64,000 nucleotides of DNA, taken from contig NC_092679.1 of NCBI RefSeq assembly GCF_964355755.1, positions 2,944,201-3,008,200 on the forward strand, written 5' to 3'. The stretch is from Antedon mediterranea (lineage: Eukaryota > Animalia > Echinodermata). Positions 1,996 to 34,199 of this stretch are shown one piece after another. The position numbers and the translations under genes were made by a program. Under the pieces are notes generated by a model. The model ran no database searches, was not told the origin of the DNA, and was given only the letters and a program-made list of their open reading frames with translations. Positions within the stretch are counted from its first letter, which is position 1, and each line of letters begins with the position of its first letter.

Positions 1996-4900
1996 ATGTC
2001 TAACGTGGCCTTCAAATCTTGGGGATTTATTTTGGGGAGCGTTTCAATATTTTTTGGTACGATATTTTATCGCGGGATGTCAATGGAGAATCAAGTGCAG
2101 GACTCGATAAACGCTATTTGGGCGGCCATTGCGGCATTAAACCGGAGGTTGTCTTCTCTCGAGGACCTAAATACTAAATTGTTAGAAGAAGCAACTGTAA
2201 GTTTTATTTACTATTTGTTATTAATGCACAAAACAACATTTGATTTCTCTTTTGTTTTATATCTTTAAAATTATAATTTTAACCTATTTAATTTTTTGCT
2301 AGAAATGTAAATTTTACATAATTATACACTTTTTAGATAATATATTGTGCAGTTGATGAAAAACATTGATTATTTAAAATACAGATAGTACCGGTACTGT
2401 AGTAATAATGACATCTGATTATATTTTTTACCAAAAAATAGAGCATTAAATTTGAAATTGCTGTAAAGTTTAAATTAAAACATGACCTTCCTCTAGCAAT
2501 ACTGTGATTATTTCTACTGAAACAACCCAAATTCATTTTGAAACATTTAAATTTTACCCTTATAATTTATATAGAAATATATTTTTAATCTTAATTTAAA
2601 ATTTTGTTTGATGAAGCATTAAAAATTGAAAGGGAATTAATAGAAGAATAATACAGTGTGCATTGCTTATTAGAACAAAGCACCAATTAATTAATTTAAT
2701 TAATTGCATCATAATATTTTCTTATTAACAATTCAGTTTAACCTTTATAATTATCTAATTACCATGATATAAATTTTTAATTTAAATTGCGTAATATTTT
2801 ATAAACGTCAAAGGAATAGTTATGTGTGTGTATGTATAGTAGCATACCAGAGATTCCATTTGATGAAAAGAGTTGACTTATCGAGTGTCTTCACGCATTA
2901 CTAAAAGATGAGTCAGTCATGTGACACACAAGACCAGAATGCATCAGCATGCGTGTCATATATCTTGTTACATTTTATCATAGCAGTATCTCATTGCCTA
3001 TTTATTTCATTACGTTGAAGGCTTCGTAAAGGTTAATCTATTAATATTATATTATTGCATATATTGTGTGTATTTTGAGCTTTAAATACTGAAGATGATA
3101 AACAAGTAGAGATTATATCTTTCTAAATACATTTTTACATTTGTTCGTTTATCTACTTATTGTAATACTAGATTAATCATGTATTTTTTTTTATATATAA
3201 TTGAATTCTTTTGAAGATTTTTAACAATTACAAAAGGCTAAAAACAAACAAACACCACAATAATCATGATAATGTGTCCTTTTCCCTAGAAAATGATTAT
3301 GATATTGATATCATCAGTAAATACAGTACAGTAGGCCATATGAAATAAAGGATTGAAATTAGTTAAAGTTAAAAAAGGTTTTCAAGAATAGGGATACCAT
3401 GAAGGTACCAACAGCAGATGATGAGATTAAGTGGCAATTGAGAGGGTTTAAAAATACAGTAACTGCTTACTCTATCATTGATCAACAATTTTCAAAAGAG
3501 ATAGTAAATTAATGTGATGGGGTAGGGATTGTAAAGATAAATAATAAAAAAGAAATATGGATATTAAATCCTTGTCCATCTTTAACATGTCACTGTGTAT
3601 ATAGCACTATGCACCCACTCTCCACCCGCCACACCCCAATTTCTCTTTTGAAATCTTGCAACCAAGTCTACAAGATTTCAATTCACCCATGTACAGTACA
3701 GTAGCTTGGAAGGGATGACAGTTGACCTTCATCTAGGCTAGTTTGCACAACACATTGGGTTAAACATCCTATTTTGCCAACTTCTTCCATTCTCAGTCAA
3801 GAAAACATGGATTACTAAACATACTTTCCCAATTAATGTAAAGATTGTGGCCTTAAAATGAATCAACATAGCAGTCTATTAACAACGCTCGTTGTTCAGA
3901 GGGTTTAATTAAATTCAGTACAATATCATGCATGTTAAGTTTAAAATATGAAATTTGTATTTAACAGGATTTAATTTGTGTTGAATTACACGCTAGACTG
4001 GGTACATAGCACGAGGGAATTCCGTAACATCTGTCTCTAATTTTACTGTATTCCTAATATTCATTTAAAAAAACTATCATCCGAAACCAAAATATTTTAT
4101 TTGAAAGTGCAGTATTGTCAGCAAACATTTTTAGGCTTTTTGGTATGAAGTAGTGGGAGGTGCTTTCCTTCTTTCTGTTTTTCATACAGTATGCATCTAA
4201 CAGCGAGTAACTTGCCAATTACACAATGGATAACCTATGTAATAATTTATCGTGCTTATAACCTAAGTCTCATCTGAGGCTTAGGAAGTGGAGTTGAAAG
4301 AGTTGCGAGTCACAACCCTGACACTACAGTAGGTCAGGATTGAAGCTTTGGATTGGAAGGCAAGCATGTAAACCACAAAGCTACAGTTCCACTACAAACA
4401 GTTTAATTAGGAAAAAACTTTTTGTAGTAGATATCAAATTTACCAATAATTTGCCATGTATTGTTAATATCTTTATGAATATTACTAATTCACAATGATA
4501 TTAATTATTCAAAGTGCAGTTAATACACTAAAAAAGCTGGTTGATATGATATAGTACACGTCTATTAAAACGCTAGTCTTTCATTTATTCTTGATACACA
4601 CAGATGGCCAGCATACCTAATGGTTATAGCCTAATGAATGTTTGGTGAATTATGTATTAAAAAATTCTCAACAGCAATGCTAAATAAAAACTGGGTGTTA
4701 CAGTATCATTTTATGAATTGGAAATGTAATAATAATGTAATAATCAGGAAGTATGTTTTGTTATAAAAATGTTTATTAAAATTGCAATCAATCATGTTGG
4801 ATCATAAGTAACATATAAATTAACAAAAATAATGATTTTAAAACATTTTTTATAGAAATTATATTATTTTCAGTAATATTCTATTATGACTGATAGTATA

Positions 4901-7900
4901 TTTTTTCTTGTTATTTAGGAAAATTGTAATTTATGTTTAATAGCTAATACTTGGACAAATTTCAAATTATCAATTTTTGCACATGTACTGTTTTTAAAAT
5001 TTCATACAACAATATTTTACGAGGGTGGTCCATCCAGTCGAAGCTGATCATTAGGGACCCTCATAAAAATACAATGTGACGAGACATAAACATGAAACAA
5101 TAAATATTGAATTGAAATAAATAGAATTTATAAAAATAAACAAAATAAAATAATGCACAACAAAATTTAGAATGAAAAATTATATAAATTAAATTTTAAA
5201 TTCCTTAATTTGTTTTGCAGAAATCCAAGGAAGAAGCAAAGGTTGCCGGAGGAGAAAATGGAATCCAAGAGAATGCAGTAGGAGAGGTTGCAACAAAGGT
5301 GGAGAATGACCCAGCAGCAGCAGCAGGTGGAGAGGCTGCATCACAGGTAAACAGTCTATGCTCATGCCTGCCAAGAATATTTAGAATTGCTACCTAAAGC
5401 TCAGTCTACACTATCAAAATAGTTTGACAAAAAAAGTGTGATGTGCCTAAATATGGTAGTGATGAGCCCACGATTGTGATGATCATCACTTTTTTTTGTC
5501 ACAAAGTTTGATAGTGTAGACAGAGCTTTAACTTGTATAAAGAGTCTTTTATATCTGTTCCGGCGCTCGAAAATCAACTTGAACGTCAATGTTTTGTTTC
5601 CACAACACTCCTTGCAGTTATGAGGCAATTAAAATATGCATAGCCGAGTGAAAATGAAGCATTGATGTCCAATTTGATTTGACGCATGCCAAAATAGGTG
5701 TGAAAGACCATTTAGCCAAGTAGAAGTCGTCTTAGGTTCTTCTTGCGAACAGCTACAGATATTAAAGAGATGTAATGAAAGTTTTTTAAGGGGTTTCATG
5801 CAAACATGATCCATAATTGTAGTTTTTTGAATTTTTTTTTTCAGTATTTAGAATTGACAAAATGCAAAACATATTTTCCAAACCTCCAAAAACTGATAAA
5901 CATTTGCATCCAATTCAGTTGGTATTAGGGACGTAGTTTGGTTGTTGATCATTAAAAATTGAATGCTGCCTATTAATGTCTTATTCAGCATAGAATCACT
6001 CACATTTTCTAATTGTACTTTTTGAAATTTTCCAAATAATTGGCCTCATTAACTGCACATTGTGCATAATTGAATAGCCTGTGTTTCTACTTTGCTGTTT
6101 GACATTAATTTGTAGTGAAGGTAATTTAAATTAATCAACCTTCCATCAGGGTCATTTTTCTTGTTATTTGTGGGTATTGCACTTAGTTGCCATAGAGAAG
6201 ATGCAATAGAAATGAATGTAAACAAAATTATATTTTGAGGATAAACTATAAACTGCCTAATAAACGCTACAAATGTCCTTTTTTATCTACTAGTAAAATT
6301 AGCAATACATTTAGCAACTGGAAATATGTGTGAAACATCTATTAGAATAAAATCTATCTATGAAAATTCTTTGTTTCCAGCAAAATGCAACAGAACCAGT
6401 GGCTGCAGATGTAAAGCCAGTGGAGGAGAAGAAAGAAGAATCAACTGAAGCTAAACCAGAAGCAGATGATTCACCAACAAAGACAGAGGAATCACCAGTA
6501 AAGGAAGAGGAATCACCAGCAAAGGCAGAGGAATCACCAGCAAAGGAAGAGGAACCACCAGCAAAGGAGGAGGAATCGCCAGCAAAGGAAGAGGAACCAC
6601 CAGCAAAGGAGGAGGATTCCCCGTCGGCAAAAGAAGAGGAGTCACCAGCAGAAGTAACAAAAGAGGAACCAACGGAACAAGCTAAAACAGATGATGTAAT
6701 AATAATTCATTATTTATTTATCTTTTTATGTATGGCATCAGCATTGTTTTTGTTGTTTAATAACACTTGAATGAACAATTAATTAATATTAATACTTAAT
6801 TTTTTGTATTTTTAGGAAAAGGTAGTGGAAATTCAAGAACCACAAACAATTGAGGAACCTGCTCCAGTCACTACAAAAATAGTTACTACACCAGCTGTAA
6901 CATCTGTATCATTGGAACAAAGACCAGAATCAATAGAGGCTGTAACAAAGGAGGAAACACACACATATGTTCCTCCAATCTTGGGCTCTGCATCAGTGGA
7001 ACAAAGGCCAATGTCAGTAGAGAATGTAACAGTAGTTGAAACTGTAGAAGAAGTTGCACCAGCTGAACCCACCCCAGTAGAAGAACCTACACCAGTAGTA
7101 GAACCTACACCAGTAGAAGAACCTACACCAGCAGAAGAACCTACACCAGCAGAAGAACCTACACCAGCAGAGGAACCTACACCAGCAGAAGAACCTACAC
7201 CAGTAGAGGAACCTACACCAGTAGAGGAACCTACACCAGTAGAGGAACCTACACCAGTAGAGGAACCTACACCAGTAGAAGAACCTACACCAACTGAAGA
7301 GCCTATACTGGCAGAACAAACACCAGTAGAAGAAGTTCTACCTGCCGAAGAACCGGCACAAGTAGAAGTACAGACACCGACTGAAGAGCCAGCTTTACCA
7401 GAACCTACAATGATCCCTGCTCTTGAACAGGTGACTGCTAATGAACCAACACAGATGGAAGAACCTAAATTAGTAGAACCTACTCCAGAACCAACAGAGG
7501 AACCAGAAAAAACTGCATCAGTAGAAGAAACAATACCAACAATAGAAATAGATGAATCTGGACCTTTAGACAATACTTCAGAAGACTCCATAGAAACACC
7601 TGCCACAGAGGAACCGTCCCAAACTGAACCAATTCCAGCTGAAGAATCAGCAACAGTAGAAGAACCAACGGAAATAGAAGAATCAGCACCAGTGGAAGAA
7701 TCAGCACCAGTGGAAGAACCAGCACCAGTGGAAGAACCTACACCAGTGGACGAACCTACACCAGTAGATGACCCTACACCGGTTTCAGAACCTGAACCAA
7801 CACCAGAGTTAATTGCTGTAGAAAATACAAATGGAGAAATTGACAAAAAACCAAATGACAAAGTTTCTGTGAACTTTATGTGGAATGAATCTGCAGATGT

Positions 7901-10900
7901 TGTAACTGTGTCTGGAAGTTGGGACAACTGGAGTGCCAAGACTCCCCTTGTTCATGAGTGAGTATCTCTATATTTAATTTGTGAATTTAAAGATTGAAAT
8001 ATTATCCAAATTTAAAAATTTAGAATTATGTTTTTGAAAGTACCTTGTCTCTGCTGTCATTTATGGTGAAGCATACGTTCAAACAAATCGTTCAATTAAT
8101 TCAGACTTTTTTGACTAAAAATGATTGATAATTCAAAAACTATGTTTTGTTGCTCATTTGTTGTTTTGCACTTATTTTTATATATTGTTTGTGTTTGCCT
8201 AATTTTATATTTAGTTGTAATCATTTGTTTGCATGTTCAATATTTTCTTCAGTGTTTTTTTTTTTAAAGCTGCAAATAAATCGTGTTTAATGCATTAATT
8301 ACAAGTGTACAAGAGTAAACAATTTGGCTTGTCTCTGCTCTTGGTTAAAAGAATACGCTGATAATGCTGTACTGTTACTCTGATTGCAGTAGACAATGTT
8401 CAACTGGTTAAGGGTTGTACAAAACCTAAACCAGGCCTTCCAAACTAAAACAAATAATCTGCAATGTTTTGATATACAAAAATATCCAAATAGTGCATAA
8501 CACTTCTATTTAGTCTTTACTACTAGGCCCATTTTGTTTATCAGAAATTTGGATAATCTGTTTACAAACAATGTTCAGCATATGGCACATGTTGAATGTG
8601 CCTCTCATAACAAGGCAATCTAACAACAGCATGCTGAGCTCCAGAGATCAAAGGATTTATCTGTGGCTGCAACATAATCAGTTCCACACCGCTTAACAGA
8701 TACCCTGTGCCACATAGAATATGTACAAAGTACAGTCCTGTTGGTATTTGTTGCAGCCAGACATAAGATCAAAGGACTGTTGCGAGTAGAGTTCCTATTT
8801 GGCAAGGCAAGCTCAGTGTCCTGTTGTTAGATTGCCTTGGTCATACCAATTGTTTACTGTAGATGCTGATGAATTTTATGTTTGAATGTATTTTTTAAAC
8901 AATGCTTTAATAAAGTATTTCCGAAAGTTCAATTTTCAAAGTTGGCAATGTGAAATATTCCATTGAATGTTCTATTCAAAAAAATTAAAAGCTAATAAAT
9001 TAATGCATTAAACAAAGTTATAGATATTGACTGACTTCAGCTTTTAGTAATAAGTTCTGCACTTCTCATTTTTGTTCAAGTTTTTATTTGTTATTTATAT
9101 TTAAAACTAAAATTTTAATCTAAAAACAACATTAACTGTTCAACTTTACATACAACAAATTAAACATTTCATATAACTTTTTACTAGAATCAATTCAACT
9201 CTCTCATAACTAATTATCTAATGAAAATTGCTGTTCTTAACATTTTTTTTTTTCATTTCGCCCAGAGTTTTGCTTTAAATCACAAATCAAAAACATTTTA
9301 ATAACACTGTGCTGTAATTTCACTAACTGTTCATTTGTTACGTAGTGGCATGCACCATCTGTCCACCATGATAGCTCTATCGCAAGGTGAATACGAGTAT
9401 AAATATATAGTAGATGGTCAGTGGAGATGCGATAACTCCAAGGTAATTAGCATACGCAAGACAGGATGTATGAGGGATTCAATGCCAAACAAAACTGAAC
9501 CTGTTATTGCGAAAAAAGAATTTAAATCTATGATGTTGTTTTACGATTAAACAAAAATGTTGTCATTAGTTTTCACATTAGGTTTCATGTTACAGTGGTT
9601 TTATGGAAAACGAAAATTTGGCAAAAGTCCAGTTTCAGTTTTGTTGGCATTGTTTCCTTTTAAAGCATGAGGCATGAAATGTGCATCCTCTCCTTACGAA
9701 TGGGCATTTTTTTTTTTTTTTTTTTTTTTGTGTATATAATAATGAATAATAACCAATTGGGTTCATGGACCCCATTTTTTCCACAGTGAGGGTAAATTTA
9801 TTTTGAGTATTGATTTAGCGGAGGGTGAATACAACTACAATTTCACTGTTGATGGCGAAACAAAGGTAGACACTGATCAGGTGAGGGAATTGTCCAATGA
9901 CGATTCAGTATTTCATCGTTTTCCATAGCATGCATGTTTGAAACTTCCTTATGGCATTTTGTTTAGTCTTGTTCTGATGTAGCATGTTTTGTTCATTTCT
10001 TTTGTAGTGCAGTAGAACTCCTCTAAAGAGAACTCCTTCAGAACAATTCTTATTTAGGAGACTTCTTCAAAAGACAATAAAAGTGTCCCCTTAATATGGG
10101 CTGGCGAAGTGTAAAAATAAAACATATATCGAAATGATATTATATATCATTTCACAGAAAAGTATCCCCTTAATGGGAGTGTCCCCTTAATGGGAGTGTC
10201 CCCTTAATGGGAGTGTCCCCTTAATGGGAGTTTCCCCTGAAATATGTACTGACAGAAATGTTAAAATGTTTTGTATTCATTTTTTATAAAAGTTTCCCAA
10301 AAGAGTTCTACTGTAGATTTTTAATTTAATATTAACTTTACATTATTGACTTTGCATTCTTTATCTCATTCGAATTTAATACAAATTGTTTATTATTATA
10401 AAATCAATTTTATCATGATCAAAAATACATTTTAACAATGCTTTTGATTACATTTACTTTATAAAGCTCTATAACTATCAAACTTTATGTGACAAACAAA
10501 ATGTTATGTGCCCAAATATGGAAATGATGATGTCTCATATCACTACCATATTTGGACATATCACTACCATTTTTGGGCACAAATTTTGTTGATAGTGTAG
10601 ACATACCTTAACTTCTATTTAGAATCAGTTTTAATGTTCCTTTTAGATTTAGCAAATCTTTTCATTTCTTTTGTTGCTTTTCTAACTACATGCATCATAC
10701 TCCTTACATCGCTGTTGTGATAGTTCCAAGGACTACACCAATCAAAGTTTTGTGCATTTTGTAAAAGCCAAATACAACACAATTTTCGTTCAGATTTTTG
10801 TACAAAATATCCTCCACTCTGTCTTTTTGAAATATGATATTTGAAACAGAAAGAATTGAAATTTTTTTTTTTTATTCTGTAAAAGTTTTGGCAACAGAAA

Positions 10901-11698
10901 TATGGTGTTTGTCCAAATTTTAAATTAACATAATTATTTCAACAATTTGTGGTTTAGCTTGACGGCAGAATTTTGGCTCTTTGCATGATGTGTGCATTTT
11001 AATTTTTTTAGTAATATTGATAACAATTGCGTTAACTAAATTCAGTAGATGTAGTGCGTTTTTTAGTATTGTACTTAATTGAAGGTAGGAATCATTCTAA
11101 AAGTTATTTAGTATTAGACAATTTTATCATGACCATTTGCACTACAATTTGTTTTTTGGTTTTTTTTAACCTGCTGTCGCAGTTGTGTTTCACAGGACAT
11201 CTCCATCTTCCATTCTGTTTTTGGAACAAGTTTGTATCTTTAATATGGTACCCCAAACTTGCTTTTGTGAGAGTTTTAAAAATTGCATTAAAATTACAAC
11301 AAAGGGTAAATAATTGAAATGGAGAAAACAATGCAGTGTAAATCTATGTTTCCTTAATCTCGGTTTACACTATCAAACTAGTTTGCAAAAAAAGTGTGAT
11401 GCGCCGAAATATGGTAGTGATATTCCCAAATGGTAGTAATATGACATCATATCCATATATGGGCACATCACAATTTTTTGTCACATAAAGTTTGATGGTG
11501 TAGACAGAGCTTAATCCTAATTCGGCTTGATCAGCAGTTATGGCCTTGAATCAAAAGTTATTAATGAAAATTGTCCATAAATATAAAAGCACATGTTATG
11601 TACAGTATGTTAATGCATTTTATTTATCTTTTTTTCAGCCAACAGTAGAAGCAGAATTTGGATTGAACAACGTAATCCAGGTGTCACAGTCCTCCTAA
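1996..11698 (+). CDS. Uncharacterised Glu/Pro-rich protein with C-terminal AMPK-beta-like carbohydrate-binding module (CBM48/AMPK1_CBM), 645-646 aa, with alternative exons 5A/5B
   Basis: Exons 1996-2196, 5221-5346, 6381-6695, 6816-7957, then 9346-9442 (5A) or 9787-9880 (5B), then 11639-11698 (TAA). All junctions are GT-AG with consistent phases (0,0,0,2,0). C-terminus VNFMWNESADVVTVSGSWDNWSAKTPL...GEYEYKYIVDGQW...PTVEAEFGLNNVIQV aligns with the AMPK-beta CBM. The link of exon 1 to exon 2 is less certain than the rest. Confidence 0.8.
4200..4396 (-). mobile_element. tRNA(Gly-like)-derived SINE, family 1
   Basis: Reverse complement matches the copy at 25709 in both head (gtagtggaactgtagctttgtggtttacatgcttgccttccaatcc) and tail (tataagcacgataaat). 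Confidence 0.7.
5398..5527. mobile_element. PIF/Harbinger-like MITE family A (TIR AGCTCTGTCTACACTATCAAACT)
   Basis: Terminal inverted repeats flanked by TAA/TTA. About 13 copies or fragments in the window: about 5398, 10465, 11357, 21211, 21733, 23178-23554, 25330, 27697, 28232, 31738, 32422, 42273, 43951. Confidence 0.8.
6480..6660 (+). repeat. Coding 21-bp tandem repeat (KEEESPA/KEEEPPA)
   Basis: About 8 copies of a 7-aa unit in exon 3 of gene 1. Confidence 0.9.
7060..7305 (+). repeat. Coding 18-bp tandem repeat (PTP[V/A]EE)
   Basis: About 13 copies of gaacctacaccagtagaa-like units; a degenerate second block lies at about 7675-7790. Confidence 0.9.
8611..8839. mobile_element. MITE with ~30-bp imperfect TIR (CAAGGCAATCTAACAACAG...)
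   Basis: caaggcaatctaacaacag at 8611 and ctgttgttagattgccttg ending at 8839. TCATA lies one base outside each end, a possible 5-bp TSD. Confidence 0.65.
9346..9442 (+). CDS. Alternative CBM exon 5A (retains YKY..DGQW glycogen-binding residues)
   Basis: 97 nt, phase 2 to 0. Branch point CACTAAC at 9321-9327, acceptor gtag, donor AAG|gtaatt. Encodes (D)GMHHLSTMIALSQGEYEYKYIVDGQWRCDNSK. Confidence 0.85.
9787..9880 (+). CDS. Alternative CBM exon 5B (Lys to Asn, Trp to Thr variant)
   Basis: 94 nt (same length as PRKAB exon 25597-25690), phase 2 to 0. Acceptor ttttttccacag, donor CAG|gtgagg. Encodes (D)EGKFILSIDLAEGEYNYNFTVDGETKVDTDQ. Not present in the ORF track. Confidence 0.8.
10010..10313. 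mobile_element. Tc1/mariner (pogo/Tigger-like) MITE with internal 17-bp minisatellite
   Basis: TIR CAGTAGAACTC...GAGTTCTACTG followed by TA; gtgtccccttaatggga x4 at about 10163-10230. Related fragments at about 15533-15655 and 28505-28562. Confidence 0.65.
11357..11511. mobile_element. Harbinger-like MITE family A copy
   Basis: tttacactatcaaact...agtttgatggtgtagacagagct. Confidence 0.75.
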
Positions 11699-12819
11699 GG
11701 AGGAACCACTAAGGGGCATTAAACACAAAAACATGTGCAACATCTCACCGTGTGATTCCTTAAGATTCCAGAATATTCTAAGCTAAAACGGCTTAGAATT
11801 CTAGTTTTATGCCTAGGTTGTTACAAAGACAGAAAATCTTATGGGATGAAATAAAGACTAATGACCTGGATTTAGTCTTTGCTTCAACCTAGGTTCCAGA
11901 AAATGCGGCCTAGAATTCGGCAGTCTTTTAATATTTCTACGTTATTGGTTTTTGGTACACATCATCTCTTTAGAATCTATTGTACAAACAATTATATTTA
12001 AAAAAAGACAACTTGTAGTTAGTATAGACAATAGACATAATAAATAAATTCCACCTATTTATGTACTTGGATGATAAGAAAGGTCTTTTGCCAGGGTCTG
12101 GTATAACAATAGGCTTAATAATAATGGTCATCCAGGGACGTTTAGAGAGCGTTTTAGGGAGGTTAATGCTTTCCTTAGAATATAAAAGGGGAAACTAAAA
12201 TTGCCTATAGTTAGGTTTTCTTTATGTGTGCTTTTTAGAATATTATGGTGGTCGTCCATCTAAAGATCTTTCTGGATAAACCATGACTTCTGACCTCCTA
12301 TCCCTAGGTTGTAACCCTGTTCCCATTCCCAGAAATGACCCCCCTTCCTATTTATTTTACAGATAATTTTGAGAGGGTGTTACATATATAACAACAAAAA
12401 AACATTTTGCTTATATAAAGTTTTCTGTACCCACCTAAAAAATTCCAACTCTATTTTGTATTTTAATGCCATTCTTTTACTTTAACATTTTATTTTTTGT
12501 ATTATGTTTATATCAAATTGGCAAATTATATTTACTTGTTTTATAGAAGAAATATTTGGATTGAGGTTTCTAAAAAATATACAACATTTATTTATACATT
12601 ACAACAATATAATTATGTGTATACGTTAATAGGAGTATTGTAAAAATTATCTAAAATTTCCATCCATATCCTATGTATAATTTGCAGTGGTTACATAAAA
12701 AAAACAGCGCCCTCACAATGTATGAAATCAGTGATGTGTTATCAACGTGGCTCTCTGACTGTATTATGTTTTACATGTACTGATATATGCTTTCTTAATT
12801 CAGTTTATTTACCAATATC

Positions 12820-13062
12820 AATCAATTGATATCTTTCAATTGATATATATTGATTGATATCTATCGATTGATATCTATTGATTGATATCTATCAATATCT
12901 ATTATTGATATCTATCGATTGATATCTATTGATTGATATCTATCGATTGATATCTATTGATTGATATCCATCGATTGATATCTGTTGATTGATATCTGTT
13001 GATTGATATCTACCGATTGTTATCTACTGATTGATATCTATTGATTGATATCTATCGATCGA
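12820..13062. repeat. 14-bp minisatellite (GATTGATATCTAT[C/T]), probably in or just after the gene 1 3' UTR
   Basis: About 16 copies, rich in GATATC/ATCGAT palindromes. Confidence 0.9.
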
Positions 13063-16000
13063 TTCAAAGTATTCACAGTGGTATTGGGTTTTGTCCAAAG
13101 CCGTGTTAGATATTTGATTCAAATTTTGTGAATGTTTTGCTTGCTTGTTACTTATGCAATGTTGTTAAATGTAGATCCACTATGCAAATACTCCCTCCAA
13201 TTAGAGACCACTATTTTACATGATAAATAGAACATAGCTAGTGATCCTAATGATAGACCAAAACTTATAGGGTTGTCTGTAGTTGATTTTTATTAACATC
13301 ATATTCAGTACAGTGATAGAACAACAGGGTAACAAATTGCGGTCCCTTTTTGGAAAACGTTATTTGTGGTTCCTAAATAGAGTTTCAGCGGGATTTATTT
13401 CATAATAATGGCTTGTTGATAATATTATTGGTAATATTCCTGTTTATGTAAAACATAGTATATAATATTACAAGAAGAATATAACACATTTTTTTTTTGG
13501 CAAATAAATTGTGCACTTTGTGTTTAAAGCGCTCTAATACAATAGAAGGTCGAGTGAGGTTGATTTCTTAAGGTGAGCTGAGCTCGTATTTAAACACAGT
13601 TTATTTACGTTTAGGTGCGTAGTTTACTTTCGTTGCCATAAGGCTTTAAAGGTATTTGCTTCATGATTACATAAAAACAACAATGATGACTTTTACTCAA
13701 CTCAATGTACCCTACACTGTACATATAAACCCAAAGTATAATATAGTTGAGTAAAGGCTTTAATGTTCCTTCTACCTAATTGGCTGCAGCCGTTCATACT
13801 ATCCTTCGTTGTTCAACCTATTTGGTACGCTGATCATAAGCAATTCACCTGCACTAAAATACTCTATTATGTAAATAGCAATTGTCCAATTTACATAGTG
13901 TACAAGTGTTTTACAGTCCGACAATCTTCTTGTTAGTTGTTCCATTAGTTTTGCACATCTGTGGTTGCGTACATTTAAACATACGAGGGCATTGCCTTGT
14001 GGGTAATAATATGCAATATTGAGGATTTCTTGCGCAATTTTCAAATAGTGAAATTAAATACATACTTTCACATTTGTAAATATCATTTTTTTTTTAAGGC
14101 TGTTCTATGAGTTTGCCCCGCCGCATGCCTATTAACAATTCAACCTGAATATGCAAATTTTGTGACGAACAATGTTTATTCAAATGCATGTAGAATTTCA
14201 TGTTAACTGTGTATTTAGCTTAGCTATAATAAAGCAATATGAAGTATCTGCTGTTTGTGTTTGTTTAAATTGATCTAGTTTTTTAAAAACATTGCAAAAA
14301 CAAACTTAACAAATCCTGAATGATATATGTTGCCCTGACCGTCTTCCGACAAAACACAAGTTTATTTTCTCCGGTTTTTTTTCACAGTTTAATAATGCAA
14401 TATAGTAAAAATTTCAAACAAAAATTATTTGTATATAATTATTTGGACATCATGAAATATAAACAGCATTTTTTTATACTTAAAACGTACTTTATTAATG
14501 TTGATTTTAATTAATAATGTTGGTGAAGAAAATAACTGTTTACTTAAAATGTTGGTGAATTCATTTTAAAAAGGAAAAGAAATTGACTAAAGTTTTGAAA
14601 TTAAGTAATGCACAGTTTATGAATGTATTTAATACCCTCCTTGATGATTAATTTGTACTAAAAAATAATAATTACACAGTGTACGTAGTACAGAGAAATA
14701 TATAATTAAAAATGAATGAAAAGGTTTTGAATTTAAAAGTAATAATATACAAGGTAATTTGTTATTAATTCATGAAAGACAAATTTAATGTTTTTATTTT
14801 AGACTTGGTTCTCCTTGTAGCGTTGGAAGAAGTATTTATACGTTAAATTTTCCCTTTTTACTATAAGCAATTTGCTACCCTGATATTAATCTTGGTCATG
14901 TTCTCAATCTTGCCTAATAAATTGGAGATTTATTACTACTACGATGAAATTGATTTCATAAATTTTCAATGTGGATTGTAATTAAAAAGTAGTTTAAGCA
15001 GTAGGTAATTAGTATATTAATGTTAAGAGTTCCATAATTACTATTTTCACAACAAAAAAATGTGTTTGTTACCAGACATCATGATTACAGTGTTCATTAT
15101 GCTTGCTGATTGACTCCAGTTTTCTCGTAATTCAAAATGTTTAAAATGATTTTATTAAAACATACTAAACATTAATGCCTTTTACTTTAAAATTTTGATC
15201 TAACAATATTTAGAACGTTTAACATTTACACAGAAGAGTCTATGATCAAGTTAGAATGCTATTTTGTTGATAACATCTTAAGTAAATATGGAACACCATA
15301 TATGGAAAACGATCCCATTCTGTTGTTATCAGTTTACCACACTGACGCAGGTGCAACTTTACCCCCAGGTTTTAGTCATGGGTAATAAGCATCCCAAAAT
15401 AAAGGTTTGGGGAGTCGTGTGCGACTGTAAAAGTGTACTATAGGTATATAGACAACCTTTTTGTAAAATGGAATATATAATTCACAATGTTATTTTGTTT
15501 GGATTTCACCGTTGCTTGCCTGGTTAACAAAACAGTAGTAGAACCCATCCTTCGGGACAGGACAGCCCTATTCACAAGACATTTTCCCATGAAACGGATA
15601 AGGGGAAATATACTTTTAACTATTCAGAGGTTGTGTCCTGAAAGTAGATACTGTATGTAGTAACATATCCATGGCAAGTCTTTGTACAGAATAAACCTGT
15701 TTGTATTGTGGAAGTTGATCAATTCAGCAGAATGGGGCTGGTAGTAGATGTCAAGCTGTTTGAATTATATTTAGTGTTAAATATTACTTTTTGAGTTCTG
15801 GTGCTTTGTGTGCTTATCCTGTTATAACTGAAGATTAAGTCTACTGCGACTATACCGCACTTCAGAAAATGCAATTAAAAGTATATACTAATCTAAAATT
15901 GACTATTGAGTTTTCTTTGACTTTTTTTGTGAGCGGTGTTTGGAGATTTCCTCAATGAGGAAGCCAAAAGTTCCTGTGAAGGACAGTGTTTCAATTTGTT

Positions 16001-20147: not shown

Positions 20148-23100
20148 ATGGGCAACACCAGTGGTAAAGAGAAGGGTAAAGATGGTTTGCCTATGTCGCC
20201 GAGCAAGGAGACACCGTCATTTGATTTTAATCCGCGCAATCATCAGCATCGTAAACTTTTCCAGCAGTTGTCGTTAGATGATAATGACTTATCGCAAGCA
20301 AGTTTTAAGGTAACAATTGTTTTTAGGGTGAATAAAATGAAATTTCTATTCTCATTGTCATCAGCATAATAGCATAATACACTGTGGTGTTAGTTTGGTA
20401 CGGTATCTTTCTAAATGAATATAAAGTTAAACACACAATAATAGCTTTCATTTACACTAGATAGCAGATTTGAATTGGGAAAAAAAAGCATCCTTATGCT
20501 TCGGAAAAAATGTTAATTACTTTGCTTCTGCTTTCTAATAATGACCAGTTAAGTAATTAAATGCACTATTAGAATAGCCTAGGGTGTTCTAAACAATTTA
20601 ACCTTCTCCCTACGCACATTTTAATAGACCCCCTATGTCGGCCTATATTTTTCCTAGTACATTGTTGTGACCTTGGCAGATGACCAGAAGGTGAACACCA
20701 ATTATCAGGGATGCGCTTAGAAATTCAGTTTATAAAAATATCAGATACTGTTTTCTTCTTTTCTTTCTACTGTTAAGAAAAGGAGATAAATTTAATATGA
20801 TTTGTTCTTCTGTAGCTTGACAGCATATCTGCCAGCGCTTTGTTTACGGATTCTCGTTTTAGTAGATCATATTTTATAGTTTAGTTGCGCAGAGTATTTT
20901 TAGAGTCAGTCTACCACTCAGCTATTCCAAGGGAAGTGGGTGAGGATCTTCAACACTGATTCTATTGTTGTGTTCTTGGCACGAATCCAACATTATTGTC
21001 CAGATCCCTTCGGGATGTGATTCAATAATAATAGGCAACATTATGTTTTACTTAAAAACAATATTCAAGGACTTCAATTGAGTTATTTATAATCAATCAT
21101 AACCAATGGAGTATAAAATTAGGGTGTATTTTTAGCTTGAATATTTCATCATTATACTGTGTAAGGATCTATCTTATATTATACAATGAAATGGATAACA
21201 AACATTTTAAAGCCCTGTCTACACTATCAAACTTTATGTGACAAAAAAATATGGACATGATGATGTCATATCACTACCATAATAATAATAATAGTACGAA
21301 TTTGTAACTCGCCAATTCCAGCAGTAAGTGATCAAAGAGAGTACCATATTTGGGCACATCACACTTTTTTTGTCAAACTAGTTCGATAGTGTAGACAGAG
21401 TTTTTAAACAGTTAAAATAATGCCAAACAAACTTGTGGATGGATAACCAACTAAACCCACACAAATACATATTTAAAACGGAAAAAAATAATTACCCAAT
21501 TCTGTACTTTATCTGGTTTATCAATATTTGTAATACATACAGTGTCACATGAATACTGTATTACAGAATTTGCCTATGATGATACAGTATCTAGAATCCG
21601 CTAAAAATATATGTTGTGTTTTATTCCATGTTAATTGCTTTTAATTGAACTATTTATTTCATCATTATTTTAAGAGGGTGACCCAGCCAGCGTGAGCTGA
21701 TTTTACTCAGCCCTCAAACCAACATTGGTTTAAGCTCTGTCTATACTAACAAACTAGTTTGATGTGCCCAAATATGGTAGTGATATGAAATCATCGTGTT
21801 TATATAGGCTACTCGGTGTAGTTTGATAGTGTGGACAGAGCTTTATAACTTATAGTACAGTAGGCCATCTTCATTCCGTTGTATATTTCACATCTTATAT
21901 TTTCACATACATGTCTGTTTGTTTTAAAGGATATTCATAGGTCAGAGTTCACAAGACCCAGAGCTAGTACTATTGTTGAACAACCTGTTCTCAACCTAAA
22001 AGCCTTACCCACTGTGTTCCATTGGAATGGAGGAGGCAAAAATGTGTTCCTATCAGGGAGCTTTAACCAGTGGAAGACCAAGATTCCAATGTCTAAAAGG
22101 TATTTGAAAGATTTTATTTATCCTAGAAGGCCTAGTTATGATCAGTTGCTGTGATGTACCAGTACACCGGGGTAACCCCCTACTCGTCTCGAAAGATGTA
22201 CTAGGTTCTTTAAAGTGCACATGAGCTAGATGTGTGCACTGGACCTACGGTTTATAGTCCTTATCCGAGAAAACTCGTTCTACCACCAGAACCATGGAGC
22301 GAGTGAGCCTCGAACCTTTGCCAATGTTATAGCTATGTAATTACGGTTCCACTGTCTTAACCGCTTGGCCACTAGAAGGAATATAATTTCACACTGTCCC
22401 TATGAATACCGTATCATATCTGGCTGCTGAGGTCAGTATTGAGAAGGTGATAATATAGATTTACTGTAGCTACTCAAGAGTGCTCAAGAGCCTCCTCTCC
22501 TCAAAAGCTAAGAAAAACATCTTTCTAGGCAATGGTGATGACAGTAAAGATGAGGATGAATTAAAGAAAAGAGAAATAGACATTTTAAAATGGACCGGCC
22601 GTTGGAACATAAATTTCTCCATCTGATTTGTGTGCTGTATGTACAGTATGTGTACCCTAATATTTTGCATTATAATCTATTATACACTTACTAAAATAGC
22701 AAATTTAATAATAAAACACAGTTAGCGCTGAATTCCCAATATTATTGATTAAATCCAAGGTGATTTTTATACTTGGTTTACATTTTATTTTATATAAACA
22801 ATTTTTTTTCAAGTTACAATTGTGTTTTATGAATAATAAATGAAAATCAAACATAGCATCTTCGCCGTATTGCCTGAAGATATTCTTCGAAATGAATAGG
22901 TTACAATACAAGATACATTATTCCCATTGTAGATATTGGTTGACTTATTCACCATTGATTCAATTATGAAGTTGGTTTTAGACTGTTTGTTGGTAATAAT
23001 ACTACTATATAATCAATATTGTATCTTGGCAGTCACAACATTATATATTTCTGTTTTAATTATCAATTCAAAGCCATTAGATTCTAATTAAATGTTTTTT

Positions 23101-26100
23101 TGTAAATATTTTGTAATAATTTTTCTTATGGAAGATATTGGGAATAAGCTGTTCCATCAATACTCTGAATTTCTTAAAGTTCTGTCTACACTATAAAAAC
23201 AAGCACGAATGTGCGATAGTCGGGGTACAGCAAAGAAGCTATGATGACGTCATAAGACGCGATGTGACGTCACATACACATCAATAACCTCGCTACCAAA
23301 TATTTTATACGGCTATACGGTACCATCTTCGAGACGTCATATGGCTGCATCCGGTTTGAAATTTAAAAATCCGGCTCTATAGCTTTGAGGACATCACTTT
23401 TTTTGTCAAACTAGTTTGATAGTGTAGGCTGAAAGCTGTACTATCAAACTTATGTGATAAAAAGAGTGATATGGACAGGATGACATCACATCACTACCAT
23501 ATTTGGGCACATCACACTTTTTTGTCAAACTAGTTTGATAGTGTAGACAGAGCTTTTGGCTAATTTGATGTTGTTTGTGTACAGTGTGTTTGCCTGTTTA
23601 AGAATTATTGATCAACAATTAATCATAGCTAATGAAGTTCGTTAAAGCGTATTATATAACACCTAAATAAATTCCTGTCATTTGATTGGACGATTGTGGG
23701 TCACATGGCGTGCAATAGTACGCACTATTAAACGATCGTTTAATAGTACTTTTTGAAACATTTTTGTGTACGAAAAAAAAAAACGTCTCGCGGATGAAAA
23801 AAAATCTAGTACACAAATTATCCTATGATATGGCTCTGTACTGTGAAATACAACAGCGCCACCTGTCGTCTGGCCTCAGTTTCGTTTTCTTTTAAACATT
23901 TGTGTACGAAAAAAAACATTCATTATTTGTATACCATGGCGAGATCACTAACCTACCCATACTGTAGTTTATCAACACAACCTTGTGTAAAAAAAATGTA
24001 TATCTCTCTACTGATAAAGTGGATTTCACAGCCTTTATACCGTTTTTAAGAACTACATACAATGTTGGAGGTTGTGTTAATAATGCAGGCCTTTTCTTTT
24101 GATGTGAGCAAGTGCGATCACTCATCTAACACACTCCTAAACTGCACTTTAGGAGTGTGATTTACAACACACTTAAATTTGGTAAACTGCTACTCACCAA
24201 AATACAAACAGCACACCTACAGCACCCTTGAATGTATTGACGAGTGCAATTTGTAGCACACCTACAATTTTAAGGCTCGATAACGATAAATTAATGCAGC
24301 TAATACCCACCCACGACAACAACAAGTGCATGTGTGTTTTAATTACATTTGACGGAATTTGATTCCTAGTTCACATGTTTACTGACGTGGACATGATCAC
24401 ATTTCACAAATCTATATTTCAATAATGCTTCTGTAGAAAAATAAACTTGCCGTATAGATTTTCTCGATGTATTGTTATTATGAGATAGATTAATATGCTC
24501 TAGAAATCTGCACAAGGTCTTGTGTTTGATATTAACACTTAATGCTGATCCTAAAAGGCTGCCTTTGGCGCTAATATCGAGCTGTTGCACTTACAGTACC
24601 AAGGTTTTTATAAAATATTAGTATAACAATAGCTAGGTTCATGTTTGCTAGACATCTCCTGTTGTTTTAAATTTTTGATAATGATATGATGATATTTCAT
24701 AATTAATTATGTTTCTTAATGGTTATTCATTGTTATTGTTATGCTCTAAGAAAACAACCAAAGATCATCTTCACATATTTAATCCTGCATCTCTTTTTTA
24801 AATTTTTTAGATTGAAATTGTATATATTTTTTATATCTTGTATCATAAATTGTGTTACTTACTGTTGGATGCGTATGAAATAAAATGTTTAAAAAAATTG
24901 GTTAAAGTTAATGATTTTTACCAGATTAAACCCTTCATGATTTATACTATAGTTATTCCAATTTGCAATACTTTGCAAAATTTTAAATGAAAGTTGCCAG
25001 GTCAGCATTTAGCAAAATAATGATGATTACAGTATCATATTGATTGCCTTTAAAGGAAGCATATAGAACATTGTTATCTAATCTAGAGACAAGCCTCAGC
25101 CACAAACAAGCATTGCTTTCAGTTTCATTTTTCCTGAGGAAACCCTGTTTTGTGGTCATGTAGTGAAGGTTACATCCAGGGGCCTACTCCAGTGGATAGC
25201 TTTATCAAAGCATTCATTATTGACCAATCATTGAACTTGACCTTGTTGTTGAAATAGCAGGTCAATGACCAGGTGTGAGGTACATAGCAGCGATTACTCA
25301 CATGGATCTGTTTTGAATAATTTGATTTTTATGTCCACACTATCAAAGTAGTTTGACAAAAAAAAGTGTGATGTGACCAAATATCATGGTAGTGATATGC
25401 TCACATATGGAAGTGATATGGTATCATCATGTCTATATATGGGCACATCACATTTTTTTGTCACATAAAGTTTGATAGTGTAGACAGAGCTTTTAATGAC
25501 TTGAAATTCTGCAGAATACATTTGATATTTTTGAAATATAATGCATTGCAACTAAAATAAAATTGGTGACTGCATTAATATTTTTGTTTTTTATAGCACT
25601 GGTGAGTTTGTGACCATAGTGGAGCTTCCAGAAGGCAAGCATGAGTACAAGTTCAACGTGGACGGTCAATGGACTCACGATCCTAAGCAGGTAATACACA
25701 ACATAAACGTAGTGGAGCTGTAGCTTAGTGGTTAACGTGCTTGCCTTCCAATCCCAACGTCTGGGGTTCAATCCTGACAAAGTGCCAGAGTTGTCACTCA
25801 CAACTTTTTCAACTCCACACTTATACTGGGTTTATAAGCACGATAAATGATAAATAGTTTATCCATCCTGTAACTGGCGAGTTTTTGCTCGCGTATGAAA
25901 TATTTAAAAAAATTAATACAAAATAATGAATGGTCATATGTGACACTGTATTACGGAATTTGTGGTGATACAGTCCAGTGAATCTGATGCAATTTCAGTT
26001 TCTTTTTTTAAATATAAATGATAAAATTTGAAAGTGAATAACATTTCAAATCATAAAATTGGTTGATTAAAACTATATTGTAATTTAAATAACTTCTAGA

Positions 26101-28938
26101 TGCATTAGTGTTCAACTTCATCCAATTATTACTGATAATAGTTAGTGGCACCATTCATTAAAGAGTGACCCTACAGATATCATTCATCTCCTATTACATT
26201 TACCATTTTCAAAAGCTATCAATATTTCCTATATTGTGTAATTAGAATCCAAAGTTATTTAAACTCGTTCTTTCTAAATTGAAGGGGAGCTTCGGGGAGG
26301 CATGTTTAAAACGAGAAGTTTGCGTTATTAGAGCCGTTTAATTATAGTGTCTGAGCAGGCTTGTATACTTTACAGACTAAATTAACCTTTTGATTTGGCC
26401 TCGGACTACAGCGATTTCTGAATTAGAAGTAGTTGAGTGATATTATGCAACTGTGATTTAGTCAGTATATGATTTGTATGAACACTGAAATGAAAGGATT
26501 TTAGCTAACCCAAAATATAAAATAAAGGAATATCAAATTGCCAAAAATATTGTGTAACAGATATAATGTTTTCTGATTTGTATTGCTTTTAAGATGGTAT
26601 TTCTATCATCAGATAGTCTGGTAGACAGCTTAGTATTTAAACTAGAATAGGTATGTGATATGTTAGCAGGCGGCCCCTATAGGGCAGTTTATATGCTTAA
26701 TAGTATCATGTTGTGGGCTAAGTGCCAATTGAAAATAGGATTCAAATGTGCTTGCTGCCTAGCTAAGCTTGAAATGTAACCCATGATCATACTAATGTAC
26801 TGTATCCCTACCACCTAGGGTTCTGCAACAGCAAAATTTCAGTATTTTGGCTCTGTACCAACATTTAGAAGTTTAATTTAGACTGTCTGGTTTTTGATGA
26901 TTTTTTTTTATTGGCTTGATACCAGCACATTTGTTCCTATCTGAAATGTGACAAGAACTAACAGTATACCATTGACCAATTAGATCACTTACCGCCAGTT
27001 GGTATGCTAACAGATTTGAACCAATGATTTGATGACAAGATGGCTGGCACCAAACTACAGTACCTTTCTCAGTTTGCCATTGCAATATAATGTTTATAGA
27101 TATGAAATATATTAGTTTTCACTTTGTTTTTGTACCTACCAGCAATAGTGATAATTTTACTGTATATCAATTATATCAATATTCATATACGTGTTGGTAT
27201 GTTCATTGTGTCATGATAACTAGCGTGTACGTCTCAGACACGGTGTTCTTTTACTGTTGTAGCTGCAAGTTTGGTAATGTCAATAGCATTTTCTAATTCA
27301 TTGTTTAATTGTATGACCATTCTATAGTACTAGTGACTGGTTGCCTAGGTTCTAGGCCCTTCTGTAGTGTTACTTTATTTTTACAGTATTATATCAAATA
27401 TCCCTTCTAAAATCATTTTTTAGACCACGCCCGAATAAATAACTGACGAAAGATGTACTGTAATAACCGGAAGTTCTGTTGTGTTTTTTTCTCTTTTAGC
27501 CGACTGTGGATAATAACGTAGGTAGTGTAAACAACACAATTAATGTGATGAAGTCTGACTTTGAAGTTTTAGAGGCGTTAGCCATTGATTCTATTAACAG
27601 TAGCAGTACTGCCCATCAGAATGTAACAAAAGGTATGCTCTTTAGATTTCAACATAAATTGATATGGTAAATTACATCTAACAACAGGACACATTTTCTA
27701 TCAAAGTTTGATAATGTAGACAGAGCTTTTTGACTGTTTTAAAGACAATAGAATGAGTAACCATAACAAGCACAAACATTTATTCCCAAGTAAGCCAGCC
27801 AGCCAACTGCAAAATTAACTGATTTTAAATTTCAATTTGTTTGTAGGAGAGAGTAGTTCACCACCAGGTGACTATAGTCAAGAAATACCTAAAAGGATTT
27901 CACCCGAGAAGTCTGGAGGTCCTCCAATTCTTCCACCACATCTCCTGCAGGTGATGTTGAATAAAGACACAGGTCTACAGGTTAGTGAAACAGTTCAAAT
28001 ACAGATTTGATAATTAATTGTTAAGATGATTCGATGGCAACACCTTGGCAACCATGGTTTCTCACCATCATGCCAGGAGTGCCAGTCAGCAACCACGCCC
28101 TGGGTGGGGAGGGAGGTTGCATCGCCAACCAGCGTGATAAGAACCGTAGATAAGGAATCATTGGTTGTAAAATGGAATGTTCTCTTGTCTGTGTTCTCAT
28201 GTGAAATTGTGAAAAACTCTCATTCTCTCTTTCCTACACTATCACACTAGTTTGACAAAAAAGTGTGATGTGCCCAAATATAGTAGTGATATGACATCAT
28301 CATGTCTATATATGGGCACACCACATTTTGATAGAACTTTAGCTTCCTATAAAACACTACATTGAGTCTGTATGCTATTTTATTTTTATAGTACGATCCT
28401 TCGTTGCTTCCTGAACCAAATCATGTGATGTTAAACCATTTATATGCTCTGTCTATTAAGGTTAGTATCACCTCAGTATGACCTCAAATGACCTTTTGGA
28501 GGGTACAGTAGAACTCCTCCCATTAAAGAGACATTTTGTTGGCTCCTGAAGAGTTGTACTGCAATCTTAATTGCCAATTTACACAGACAAGCGGTAACGG
28601 TAAGCAGAAAACCGTGTAGCTTGTCCCACGTAGAATCTGTATATATCCCAAGCGGAAGCCGCCTGTCTGCTCCACCTTATTCATAAGGAATAACATAGAT
28701 TCTATGTTACCGCTCGTCTTTGTAAATTGTCCTTAAGAGTACAGTATAAATAAATCGGACCATAATAATGTTTTCCATGGGGGATCTCATTTATATTGTA
28801 GGTTTTTTTAACATTTTTAATAGAATTTGTCTTACTTTGTTTTAATTCTTTGCCATGTAGGATGGTGTGATGGTTTTAAGTGCAACACATCGGTACCGCA
28901 AGAAATATGTTACAACAGTAATGTACAAACCCATATAA
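20148..28938 (+). CDS. PRKAB1: 5'-AMP-activated protein kinase beta subunit (279 aa)
   Basis: Exons 20148-20309, 21930-22099, 25597-25690, 27500-27632, 27847-27980, 28392-28460, 28861-28938. MGNTSG myristoylation start; CBM PTVFHWNGGGKNVFLSGSFNQW...YKFNVDGQW; C-terminal PPILPPHLLQVMLN, LPEPNHVMLNHLYALSIKDGVMVLSATHRYRKKYVTTVMYKPI. Co-orthologous to PRKAB1/PRKAB2. Confidence 0.97.
21733..21842. mobile_element. Harbinger-like MITE family A copy with TTA TSD
   Basis: tta|agctctgtctatact...gtgtggacagagct|tta. Confidence 0.8.
22158..22374 (-). mobile_element. tRNA-derived SINE with Nin/Deu-like central domain
   Basis: Minus strand: A-box tggccaagcgg, B-box ggttcgagg, then ggataaggactataaaccgtaggtcc...gcactttaaagaacc...gagtagggggttaccccggtg. 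Second copy at about 43325-43465 (+). Confidence 0.65.
23178..23554. mobile_element. Composite/nested Harbinger-like MITE family A
   Basis: Left TIR agttctgtctacactat, two right-end copies (agtttgatagtgtag) at about 23413 and 23532. Confidence 0.65.
25709..25892 (+). mobile_element. tRNA(Gly-like)-derived SINE, family 1
   Basis: A-box tagcttagtggt, gccTTCCAatc anticodon-like arm, B-box ggttcaatcc. Homologous copies at 4200-4396 and 41635-41797 (-). Confidence 0.75.
28571..28712. mobile_element. Harbinger-like MITE family B (TIR GGCCAATTTACACAGACGAGCGG)
   Basis: gccaatttacacagacaagcggtaac...gttaccgctcgtctttgtaaattgtcc. Related copy at about 41148-41272. Confidence 0.7.
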
Positions 28939-32097: not shown

Positions 32098-34191
32098 CTA
32101 AATTTGATCGACGATGTTAGCAGCTAGCGTGCATGTCAGTCCTGTACCGTCGGGTTCTACATTAATCTTCTTTACCACGCCATCTTCAATAACCATTGCA
32201 TATCTGAAACATGTCAAATTATACTCTTTTAGTATTTAACTTTAGTATAACCTCATTAAAACTCTAGTATTTTCAACTCTTAAGCTCCTTTCCCACAACA
32301 AGAGTGCTTGTATAGATGCCTGCATTGGCTCAGGGGAGGAGAGGTTAATTGTTCAAATGTTTATTGTAAATAATGGATTTCAATTCAATGTAAAAACTCC
32401 AGATTGTTGGACCTCCACTTAAGTTCTGTCTACACTATCAAACTTTGTGTGAAAAAAAAATGTGATGTGCATATATATTGACTTGATGATGTCATATCAC
32501 TACCATATTTGGGCACATCAAACTAGTTTGATAGTGTAGACAGAGCTTTAAACCTAAGTTGGGATATGCATCACAGTTAAAGTGACTAGTAAAATGTGCA
32601 ACCCCCTTAATTTTATCATGTGATCTCCCCTTATATTATTTACATATCTGGTATCTCTAGGTATAGTTACAGTACCACCATTCACAAACAACATTACTAT
32701 ATTACAACAATAACATGAATTTGCATAAAACATAAATTATGTGATCTTTAATCATAAATAGTAAGGTTTATTAGTATAAATATTGGTATTGTTCGTACCT
32801 CTTTGATCGCAGGTTTCCTAAAATGGCAGTAGCGTCCAGTCCCAAGTCAACGGCCTGTAATAAAATAATAACATCGTATATTTTTAGTTTATTTCTCCTG
32901 TATTGATACTCTTTATTTACACATTGAAAAAAAAAAGAATTTTGACAAACCTTAGTAAATTCTGCACATGTATCTGCTAGCATACGAATCTGAAAAAGAC
33001 AAGAAAATTAACATAATTATACAGGTGTAAATATACACCATTGATCGTGGCTTTAAACCTGATATACAGATAGACATATAGATATCACATGTTGAATAGC
33101 AACTCTTCTCCAACATGGCGGCTCTCAATCATATAGGATAGGGAATGTTTTTAGTGTTCTTTTAAAACGTGTAATAAGCGTACCTCTCCAGCTTTGTGGG
33201 CATCTCCCCACGCTGACATCACAAAGGCATCGTTGACAGAGATACAAGCAACAATGTCAATGTTCTTGCTTTTGATCTTGGCAAAGTCCTGCACATACCC
33301 TGGTAGATGAGTCTAAAAAAGAAACGTTTTATTCAATTCAATATTTTATTTCGGAATCCCTAGTCTAGAATCAAATATCATAATTAAATGAAAGGCTTGT
33401 TCTAACCAAAAAATGAATACGATTGTACAGCATTTGTAGAGTTACCTCTCTAGATAGCTTACCTTTGAACAGCCAGGGGTGAAAGCCCCAGGCACGGCAA
33501 ACAGCACTCCCTTCTTGCCTTTAAAAAGGTCCGCCATATTGACCTTTTGACCTGGATTGCCTTCATGAACTTCCACACTGGGAATTTTGTCACCAACCTA
33601 TAAAAAGGGATTTACATTTATTTAATAAGATATTAACTATATTGCCATGTGTGCACAAAACACGATTCAAAATAAATATAATATGTGTGTGTACCTTTCT
33701 TTCCTTTCTTTTTGTTTAGAAAGTCAAAGAATTAAAAATTAAAAAAAAAAGAATAGGCTAGGCCCTAGGGCCTATAGTATTACTATTAGTAGGCCCTCAA
33801 TTCAACAGTGCCACACATGCACAGTAACCAGCGCGCCTAGCCTAATAAGTGGCCTACTGATGATAGAGCTAGGGCCTAGGCTTAGGCTAGCCTAGTCTCT
33901 AATAAATAGATACCGTTGGTTAGGCTAGCGTATGCCCTACTACTCTAGATAGACTAGAGGCTAGCCTAGGCTAGGGCCGCTAGTTAGGCCACTAGGCTAG
34001 CCTAACTAGCCGCCTGCCTTGAGACTAGCCTACTAGAGAGAGGTCCATTTTAAAAATGAAATGCAATAATTTACCTGTATCGGCATGTTATTTGCGGTAG
34101 ATAGAGTAAATGCACGTAAAGAAAGACGACTAATATATACTTTTGAAATGTTTTTCAGTAAGTTTGAACCGAGGCTATTTATACATGCCAT
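32098..34191 (-). CDS. PRDX5: Peroxiredoxin-5, mitochondrial precursor (193 aa; short form from second ATG at 34086)
   Basis: Exons 34191-34075, 33597-33463, 33312-33184, 32989-32951, 32854-32799, 32203-32098. Active site VPGAFTPGCSKTHLPGY, CISVNDAFVMSAW, RSKRYAMVIEDGVV, resolving Cys in GTGLTCTLA. Confidence 0.97.
32422..32547. mobile_element. Harbinger-like MITE family A copy with TTA TSD
   Basis: tta|agttctgtctacactatcaaact...agtttgatagtgtagacagagct|tta. Confidence 0.8.
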
Positions 34192-34199
34192 CAAACACG

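Follow-up and report, generated by a model that had tools for sequence, protein, structure and literature searches.

The window analysed here, 64,000 nucleotides of the Antedon mediterranea genome, carries on its forward strand a gene for a protein that ends in an AMPK-type CBM48 domain (the CBM48 gene) and, ~8.5 kb downstream on the same strand and with its own start, an AMPK-beta gene. Five runs from one organism match the locus, none of which is recorded as RNA; one of them, X1, we took for RNA by guess, and it indeed behaves as such, with exon contigs at a depth of 179-217 versus ~4-9 for intron contigs. All features of the CBM48 gene lie on the + strand, and its exons 1-3 were joined by splice signals and frame. 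Putative coding exon 1 (2083..2196) was placed by an ATG, a canonical donor and frame continuity, with a second in-frame ATG at 2077, and encodes an amphipathic, coiled-coil-like peptide that matches the TRPM_tetra profile weakly (E 0.078). Exon 2 (5221..5346, Ala/Glu-rich, open frame) and exon 3 (6381..6695, Glu/Pro/Lys repeats) are both AG/GT-bounded and phase 0-0; RNA cover of the former is masked by an adjacent repeat, and the bin of the latter has an X1 depth of 176. Exon 4 (6816..7957) encodes a long Glu/Pro/Thr repeat linker and the first part of the CBM48 domain (PF16561 positions 1-30, 27.4 bits) and is covered over 7263-7957 by an X1 contig at depth 217. The X1 individual lacks 18 bases of the linker, in frame, at 7702 and carries Pro in place of Ser at 7683; these differences, within 7683-7720, are a repeat-number polymorphism. 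Two homologous exons, 5A and 5B, follow, and then the coding part of exon 6 (11639..11698), which was aligned to the corresponding AMPK-beta exon, supplies the last CBM strands and the stop codon, and alone gives 0 matches in the PDB. A probable long 3' UTR (11699..14500, its end lying beyond the mapped stretch) is seen in X1 contigs at 11635-12704, 12915-13597 and 13669-14500, with depths of 179, 313 and 480, which we infer to belong to one transcript.

The six exon positions yield a protein of 617 amino acids (form A, with 5A) or 616 amino acids (form B, with 5B) with a pI of ~4.05. A brief amphipathic peptide forms its N-terminus and the CBM its C-terminus; the ~490 residues in between comprise 26% Glu, 18% Pro and 11% Thr. 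The C-terminal alpha/gamma-binding domain of AMPK-beta is absent, the stop codon at 11696-11698 following directly after the CBM, and the gene encodes a stand-alone CBM protein rather than a kinase subunit. At its 5' end, the link from exon 1 to exon 2 appears plausible from the joined frame. X1 depth in the exon 1 bin is only 13, and a zone of intron 1 (2368-3235) has a depth of 10-20, above most other introns and matching the exon 1 bin; given this depth and the one near 200 of exon 3, a different or extra first exon is possible. A perfect 10-base motif at position 2916, which we take to be M-box/CLEAR-like, lies inside this zone and is the sole copy in the window. Just upstream of putative exon 1, at ~1675-1985, two ~155-base copies are arranged head-to-tail, as judged by eye. 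A membrane anchor starting from an in-frame ATG at 1996 was rejected, its hydropathy of 1.39 being equalled by 10.9% of 458 background peptides. A very high-copy, MITE-like short inverted-repeat element is found at 5400-5530, 10470-10610 and 11350-11515 and in many introns, and its summed depth in DNA runs exceeds that of single-copy sequence by a factor of thousands.

The neighbouring AMPK-beta gene (20148..28938, +) is complete, with seven coding exons of 162, 170, 94, 133, 134, 69 and 78 nt in an open spliced frame to the stop. Its 94-nt CBM middle exon (25597-25690, +; PF16561 42.3 bits) is the single-copy equivalent of 5A/5B, and the introns around this exon have the same positions and phases (2, 0) in both genes. 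Over the whole CBM, form A and form B alike are identical to the AMPK-beta domain at 30 of 81 positions, and 5A and 5B are each as distant from the AMPK-beta exon. It is likely that this AMPK-beta gene is the parent of the CBM48 gene. In the simplest history, which is unrooted, a partial tandem duplication of AMPK-beta would have given rise to the CBM48 gene, and the middle CBM exon would have doubled afterwards. Translated pieces further along the window presumably belong to peroxiredoxin-5 (~32100-34200, -), eIF5 (35950-43800, +) and MEMO1 (from ~45600, +). As a whole, the genes look AT-rich, rich in introns and of animal type.

An earlier note on this DNA had described 5A and 5B as homologous exons that are entered in phase 2 and left in phase 0, and we could confirm their coordinates, ends and phases. 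Exon 5A (9346..9442, 97 nt, AG/GT) encodes the middle three CBM strands and scores 36.0 bits against PF16561 (model 35-62); its paralogue 5B (9787..9880, 94 nt, AG/GT) scores 25.9 bits (model 34-63), which for this exon alone is slightly below the whole-protein cut-off of 26.8. The two peptides share 13 identities, a score reached by 0 of 2000 shuffles, and the form A and form B domains differ by only ~31 residues. The proposal that only the inclusion of one of the two exons completes the CBM48 domain holds at the level of reading frames: 5A or 5B singly reads through to the stop at 11696-11698, both together run into the stop codon that opens 5B (its first 3 nt), 91 nt ahead of the last junction, and skipping both shifts the frame and leads to a stop three codons further. 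5A and 5B are tandem duplicates, that is, adjacent homologous exons with the same phases and one-of-two coding. DNA contigs over 8817-9697, which include 5A, show 0, 0 and 1 differing letters in 3 of 3 DNA-like runs, all of them from one sample that is perhaps the source of the assembly. As these contigs reproduce 5A together with its flanks, the exon is no assembly slip. Folds predicted for the exon fragments singly, a weak approach with 31-32 residues and no alignment, suggest three strands each for 5A and 5B, and a fold search with the predicted 5B fragment alone returned no significant match. A third exon copy was considered and dismissed, since tblastn returns only 5A, 5B and the AMPK-beta exon. 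At 9990-10009, 20 bases match the 5A acceptor at 85%; an early stop and an inserted repeat come after them, a coding remnant was not found there, and this look-alike acceptor near 10007 was rejected as that of an extra exon because of the early stop.

The RNA-like run informs on the use of the pair. A 771-nt X1 contig at depth 217 contains the joint 7957>9787 over a GT..AG intron together with all 94 bases of 5B. Exon 5B, put forward from its sequence, is therefore real and in use, and the main transcript of that sample leaves out 5A. The exon 6 contig in X1 begins with 26 unplaced letters and four shared bases, consistent with its overlapping the 5B end by 30 bases, and this overhang points to a joint between 5B and exon 6 (9880>11639). 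Among the variant sites listed, two fall in 5B, and both are synonymous. No cover of 5A was seen in X1, where 8856-9765 is empty, in a single run whose simplified contigs show presence, not absence. One-of-two splicing as claimed in the earlier note thus stands as far as the frames and the contig with 5B in and 5A out are concerned, and inclusion of 5A was not seen in this one run. Bulge removal can collapse bubbles of 97 versus 94 nt. As X1 contigs drop minor variants, we do not count the empty 5A interval as silence. Logan contigs are the product of a SPAdes-like graph simplification (10.1101/2024.07.30.605881), and the word 'bulge' has 0 occurrences in the accessible part of that text. According to the accessible part of a survey of human tandem duplicated exons, three quarters of their isoforms are tissue-specific (PMC9741552), and it is thus expected that a single run should miss one of two exons.

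We assessed the age of the pair and the state of 5A from the divergence of the two exons. Synonymous sites are saturated (pS 0.94) at a pN of 0.32 over 24 codons, there are 16 and 18 identities at the first two codon positions versus 9/31 at the third, and similarity of the flanks is confined to a T-rich patch. With saturated pS, low pN and dissimilar flanks, the pair is therefore old and has been held at the protein level. 5A fits the family better than the expressed 5B (36.0 versus 25.9 bits); its donor is still canonical, and it has a branch-point-like motif at -23. In a neutral simulation of an unselected 5A (5000 runs of our own rough mutation model, with indels at 1/10 of the substitution rate), the frame, the splice ends and seven core residues were retained in 53%, 21%, 4.8% and 0.5% of runs at 0.02, 0.05, 0.1 and 0.2 substitutions/site, respectively. 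Because of the saturated pS and low pN, the better fit to PF16561 and the fall of neutral survival with divergence, 5A appears to have been under coding constraint for nearly its whole history, and only a recent death (<~0.05 substitutions/site) would be possible. This long-term constraint suggests that 5A and 5B alternate.

We next turn to the residues that bind sugar. Mapped on full-length AMPK-beta1 (4zhx_B), K126 and W133 are kept as Lys and Trp in 5A (codons 9401-9403 and 9422-9424, +), and their places are taken by Asn and Thr in 5B (9839-9841 and 9860-9862, +), just as the earlier note had read them. Its assignment of the two other binding residues to shared exons is likewise borne out: the W100 equivalent is a Trp codon at 7929-7931 in exon 4 (6b2e_B; W99 of beta2), and the N150 equivalent is the codon 11666-11668 in exon 6. 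The set of W100, K126, W133 and N150, which the accessible text of one study names as critical for binding (PMC4032982), is consequently complete in form A and incomplete in form B. Compared with the AMPK-beta exon, exon 6 lacks one residue, and the gap falls at T148 under 4 of 4 gap penalties tried. The L146-G147-T148 hairpin is altered in both forms, with Phe at position 146, the Gly kept and 148 deleted. Judged by sequence, form B would lack three known glycogen contacts (126, 133 and 148), and form A one (T148). Replacing W100, K126, W133, L146 or T148 of rat beta1 by Gly/Ala markedly reduced glycogen binding in each case (PMC2642990), and of two other changes, K126Q abolished such binding and W133L disrupted it in part (PMC6274970), as stated in the accessible parts of these two papers. 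By analogy with the published K126 and W133 mutants, glycogen binding is likely lost in form B. Binding by form A seems less safe than the earlier note assumed, because T148 is deleted in the shared exon and its mutation weakens rat beta1; as both forms lack T148, form A may bind poorly too. Arabidopsis AKINbeta2 binds starch despite missing K126 and N150, according to the text accessible for it (PMC4032982), and missing residues are therefore no proof of an 'off' state.

How could the two exons be kept apart? The intron between them, at 344 nt, exceeds the limit of ~50 nt for steric exclusion, which is therefore an unfit explanation. Competing intronic RNA pairing was searched for in 8 region pairs, none of which stood clearly above its 20 shuffles (best 1/20 and 2/20), and an inverted-repeat scan was unconvincing. 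The acceptor of 5B has 12/14 pyrimidines and that of 5A 10/14, which places 5A among the less pyrimidine-rich of 12 acceptors compared. Nonsense-mediated decay follows the rule that a stop lies >50-55 nt before the last junction, and the double-inclusion stop, 91 nt ahead of it, fits decay. The most economical model would be one of acceptor competition, in which 5B would be the default through its more pyrimidine-rich acceptor, 5A would be used in place of 5B under regulation, in another tissue or state, and transcripts with both 5A and 5B would be cleared by nonsense-mediated decay. A 23-base T run is found at 9707-9729, 57 nt upstream of the 5B acceptor, as one of two runs of at least 15 T in the window; it may serve a splicing factor or have arisen by chance.

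Together, the locus holds a real and old duplicated-exon pair in a stand-alone, AMPK-derived CBM48, with the residue-poor 5B as the spliced form observed. We favour, at a probability of roughly 0.55, the reading that 5A and 5B alternate and that splicing would thereby select either form B, which would bind glycogen weakly or not at all, or form A, which would bind it better. The CBM48 protein may then act as a non-catalytic tether that places a partner on or off glycogen, by analogy with the plant protein PTST1 and starch.

It is possible, though rather unlikely, that both exons are used and the choice is not one of glycogen on or off, either because both forms bind weakly or not at all, or because form B shifts the sugar preference or the protein-contact surface. 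The deletion of T148, a residue that matters in rat beta1 (PMC2642990, accessible part), affects both forms, either form retains only 30/81 identity to the neighbouring AMPK-beta CBM, and starch binding by AKINbeta2 without K126 and N150 (PMC4032982, accessible part) would fit as well. Form B is moreover expressed and under coding constraint, which suggests a positive role for it. However, K126 and W133 have been kept in 5A over a time that saturated synonymous sites, and the shared exons still encode W100, G147 and N150, as one would expect from continued selection for sugar binding in form A. We consider it improbable that 5A is a recently silenced relic and that the gene makes form B only, as a CBM-fold protein likely devoid of most glycogen binding. 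The sole joint seen does skip 5A, in a contig unbroken through 7957, the 5A acceptor is the less pyrimidine-rich one (10/14 versus 12/14), and a 5A-like exon survives 0.02 neutral substitutions/site in 53% of runs; yet synonymous sites have had time to saturate, so that the death of 5A would have to be confined to a short final portion of that history, and the exon keeps its canonical donor, its branch-point-like motif and the better family score. Finally, it is most improbable that the upstream exons serve AMPK-beta as alternative 5' parts, with 5A/5B spliced to the exon at 27500 to give long kinase beta subunits, since, although the phases fit (phase 0 both at the exit of 5A/5B and at the entry of the exon at 27500) and both genes lie on the same strand, X1 contigs run from exon 6 through the long downstream UTR at depths of 179-480, the overhang of the first exon 6 contig fits the end of 5B, and AMPK-beta has its own start and full exon set.

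Returning to a splice choice between form B and a better-binding form A, one may extend it to the tentative and so far doubtful proposal that animals possess an undescribed family of stand-alone, AMPK-beta-derived CBM48 tethers, in which ancient, conserved and exclusive exons toggle glycogen binding according to the tissue or the nutritional state, 'off' being the common setting. If true, this family would represent a splice-controlled glycogen-targeting adaptor. Loss of the lysine and of the second stacking tryptophan would amount to a natural loss-of-binding version of a much-studied AMPK-type module, and also to a new control of protein location on glycogen.

We searched for relatives of the CBM48 gene product in several collections. 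A protein search with whole exon 4 gave 82 matches, which are apparently low-complexity by coverage and Pfam label. One exon 4 match (P0006) is a fungal protein of the same plan, in which a PF16561 domain comes after acidic Glu/Pro repeats, and this likeness is probably convergent. The CBM half of exon 4 gave no candidate in a protein search, an alignment search with A and B gave 85 candidates, none of them at E <=10, a representative protein library returned five weak matches and no orthologue, and 0 of 599 pattern matches among metagenome contigs were confirmed. In the Atlas, the end of exon 4 falls into generic CBM48 clusters, and for exon 1 no family was found, with matches at <=0.89. The orthologue blanks in protein libraries and metagenome contigs are no sign of lineage restriction. 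Alternative exons inside an AMPK-type CBM were not found in literature titles and the starts of abstracts, a collection that leaves subscription journals mostly uncovered; duplicated alternative exons as a class of mechanism are already known.

We compared the locus to three known systems. To the CBM48 domain of AMPK beta (PF16561; PDB 1z0m/1z0n, 4yef, 4zhx) it is related by domain family and residue register. Unlike AMPK beta, the CBM48 gene model lacks the C-terminal alpha/gamma-binding region, the N-terminal Gly2 and T148, has two copies of the middle exon, and places the CBM at the end of a protein of ~617 amino acids. The second system is Arabidopsis PTST1, which combines a coiled coil with a CBM48 at the C-terminus and depends on the equivalents of W100 and W133 both to bind glucan and to deliver a partner (PMC4339375, accessible part). 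Both proteins are non-catalytic with a C-terminal CBM48, and the likeness is an analogy of working, not of membership: PTST1 is a plant plastid protein, homology to it is evident only within the CBM, and in the CBM48 gene product a ~490-residue acidic repeat linker intervenes and the coil is only putative.

The third comparison is with tandem duplicated exons in human genes, as described in the accessible text of a survey (PMC9741552). There, 80.6% of ligand residues are retained, and loss of ligand residues is called rare, being found in three genes among 26 human events overlapping predicted ligand sites. Neither 'PRKAB' nor 'carbohydrate' occurs in the main text that was accessible (0 occurrences each). 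In the EF-hand exons of ACTN1 and ACTN4 and in ACAN, one copy drops calcium residues. The exon pair described here shares with these genes a homologous pair used singly, with ligand residues kept in one copy and lost in the other. In ACTN1, ACTN4 and ACAN, the ligand is calcium, and both isoforms and a difference in binding have been shown; here the ligand would be a glucan, and one joint is shown. By that survey, duplicated alternative exons nearly always retain their ligand residues, and the exceptions in three genes all concern calcium, next to which 5A and 5B would stand as a putative case with a glucan as the ligand.
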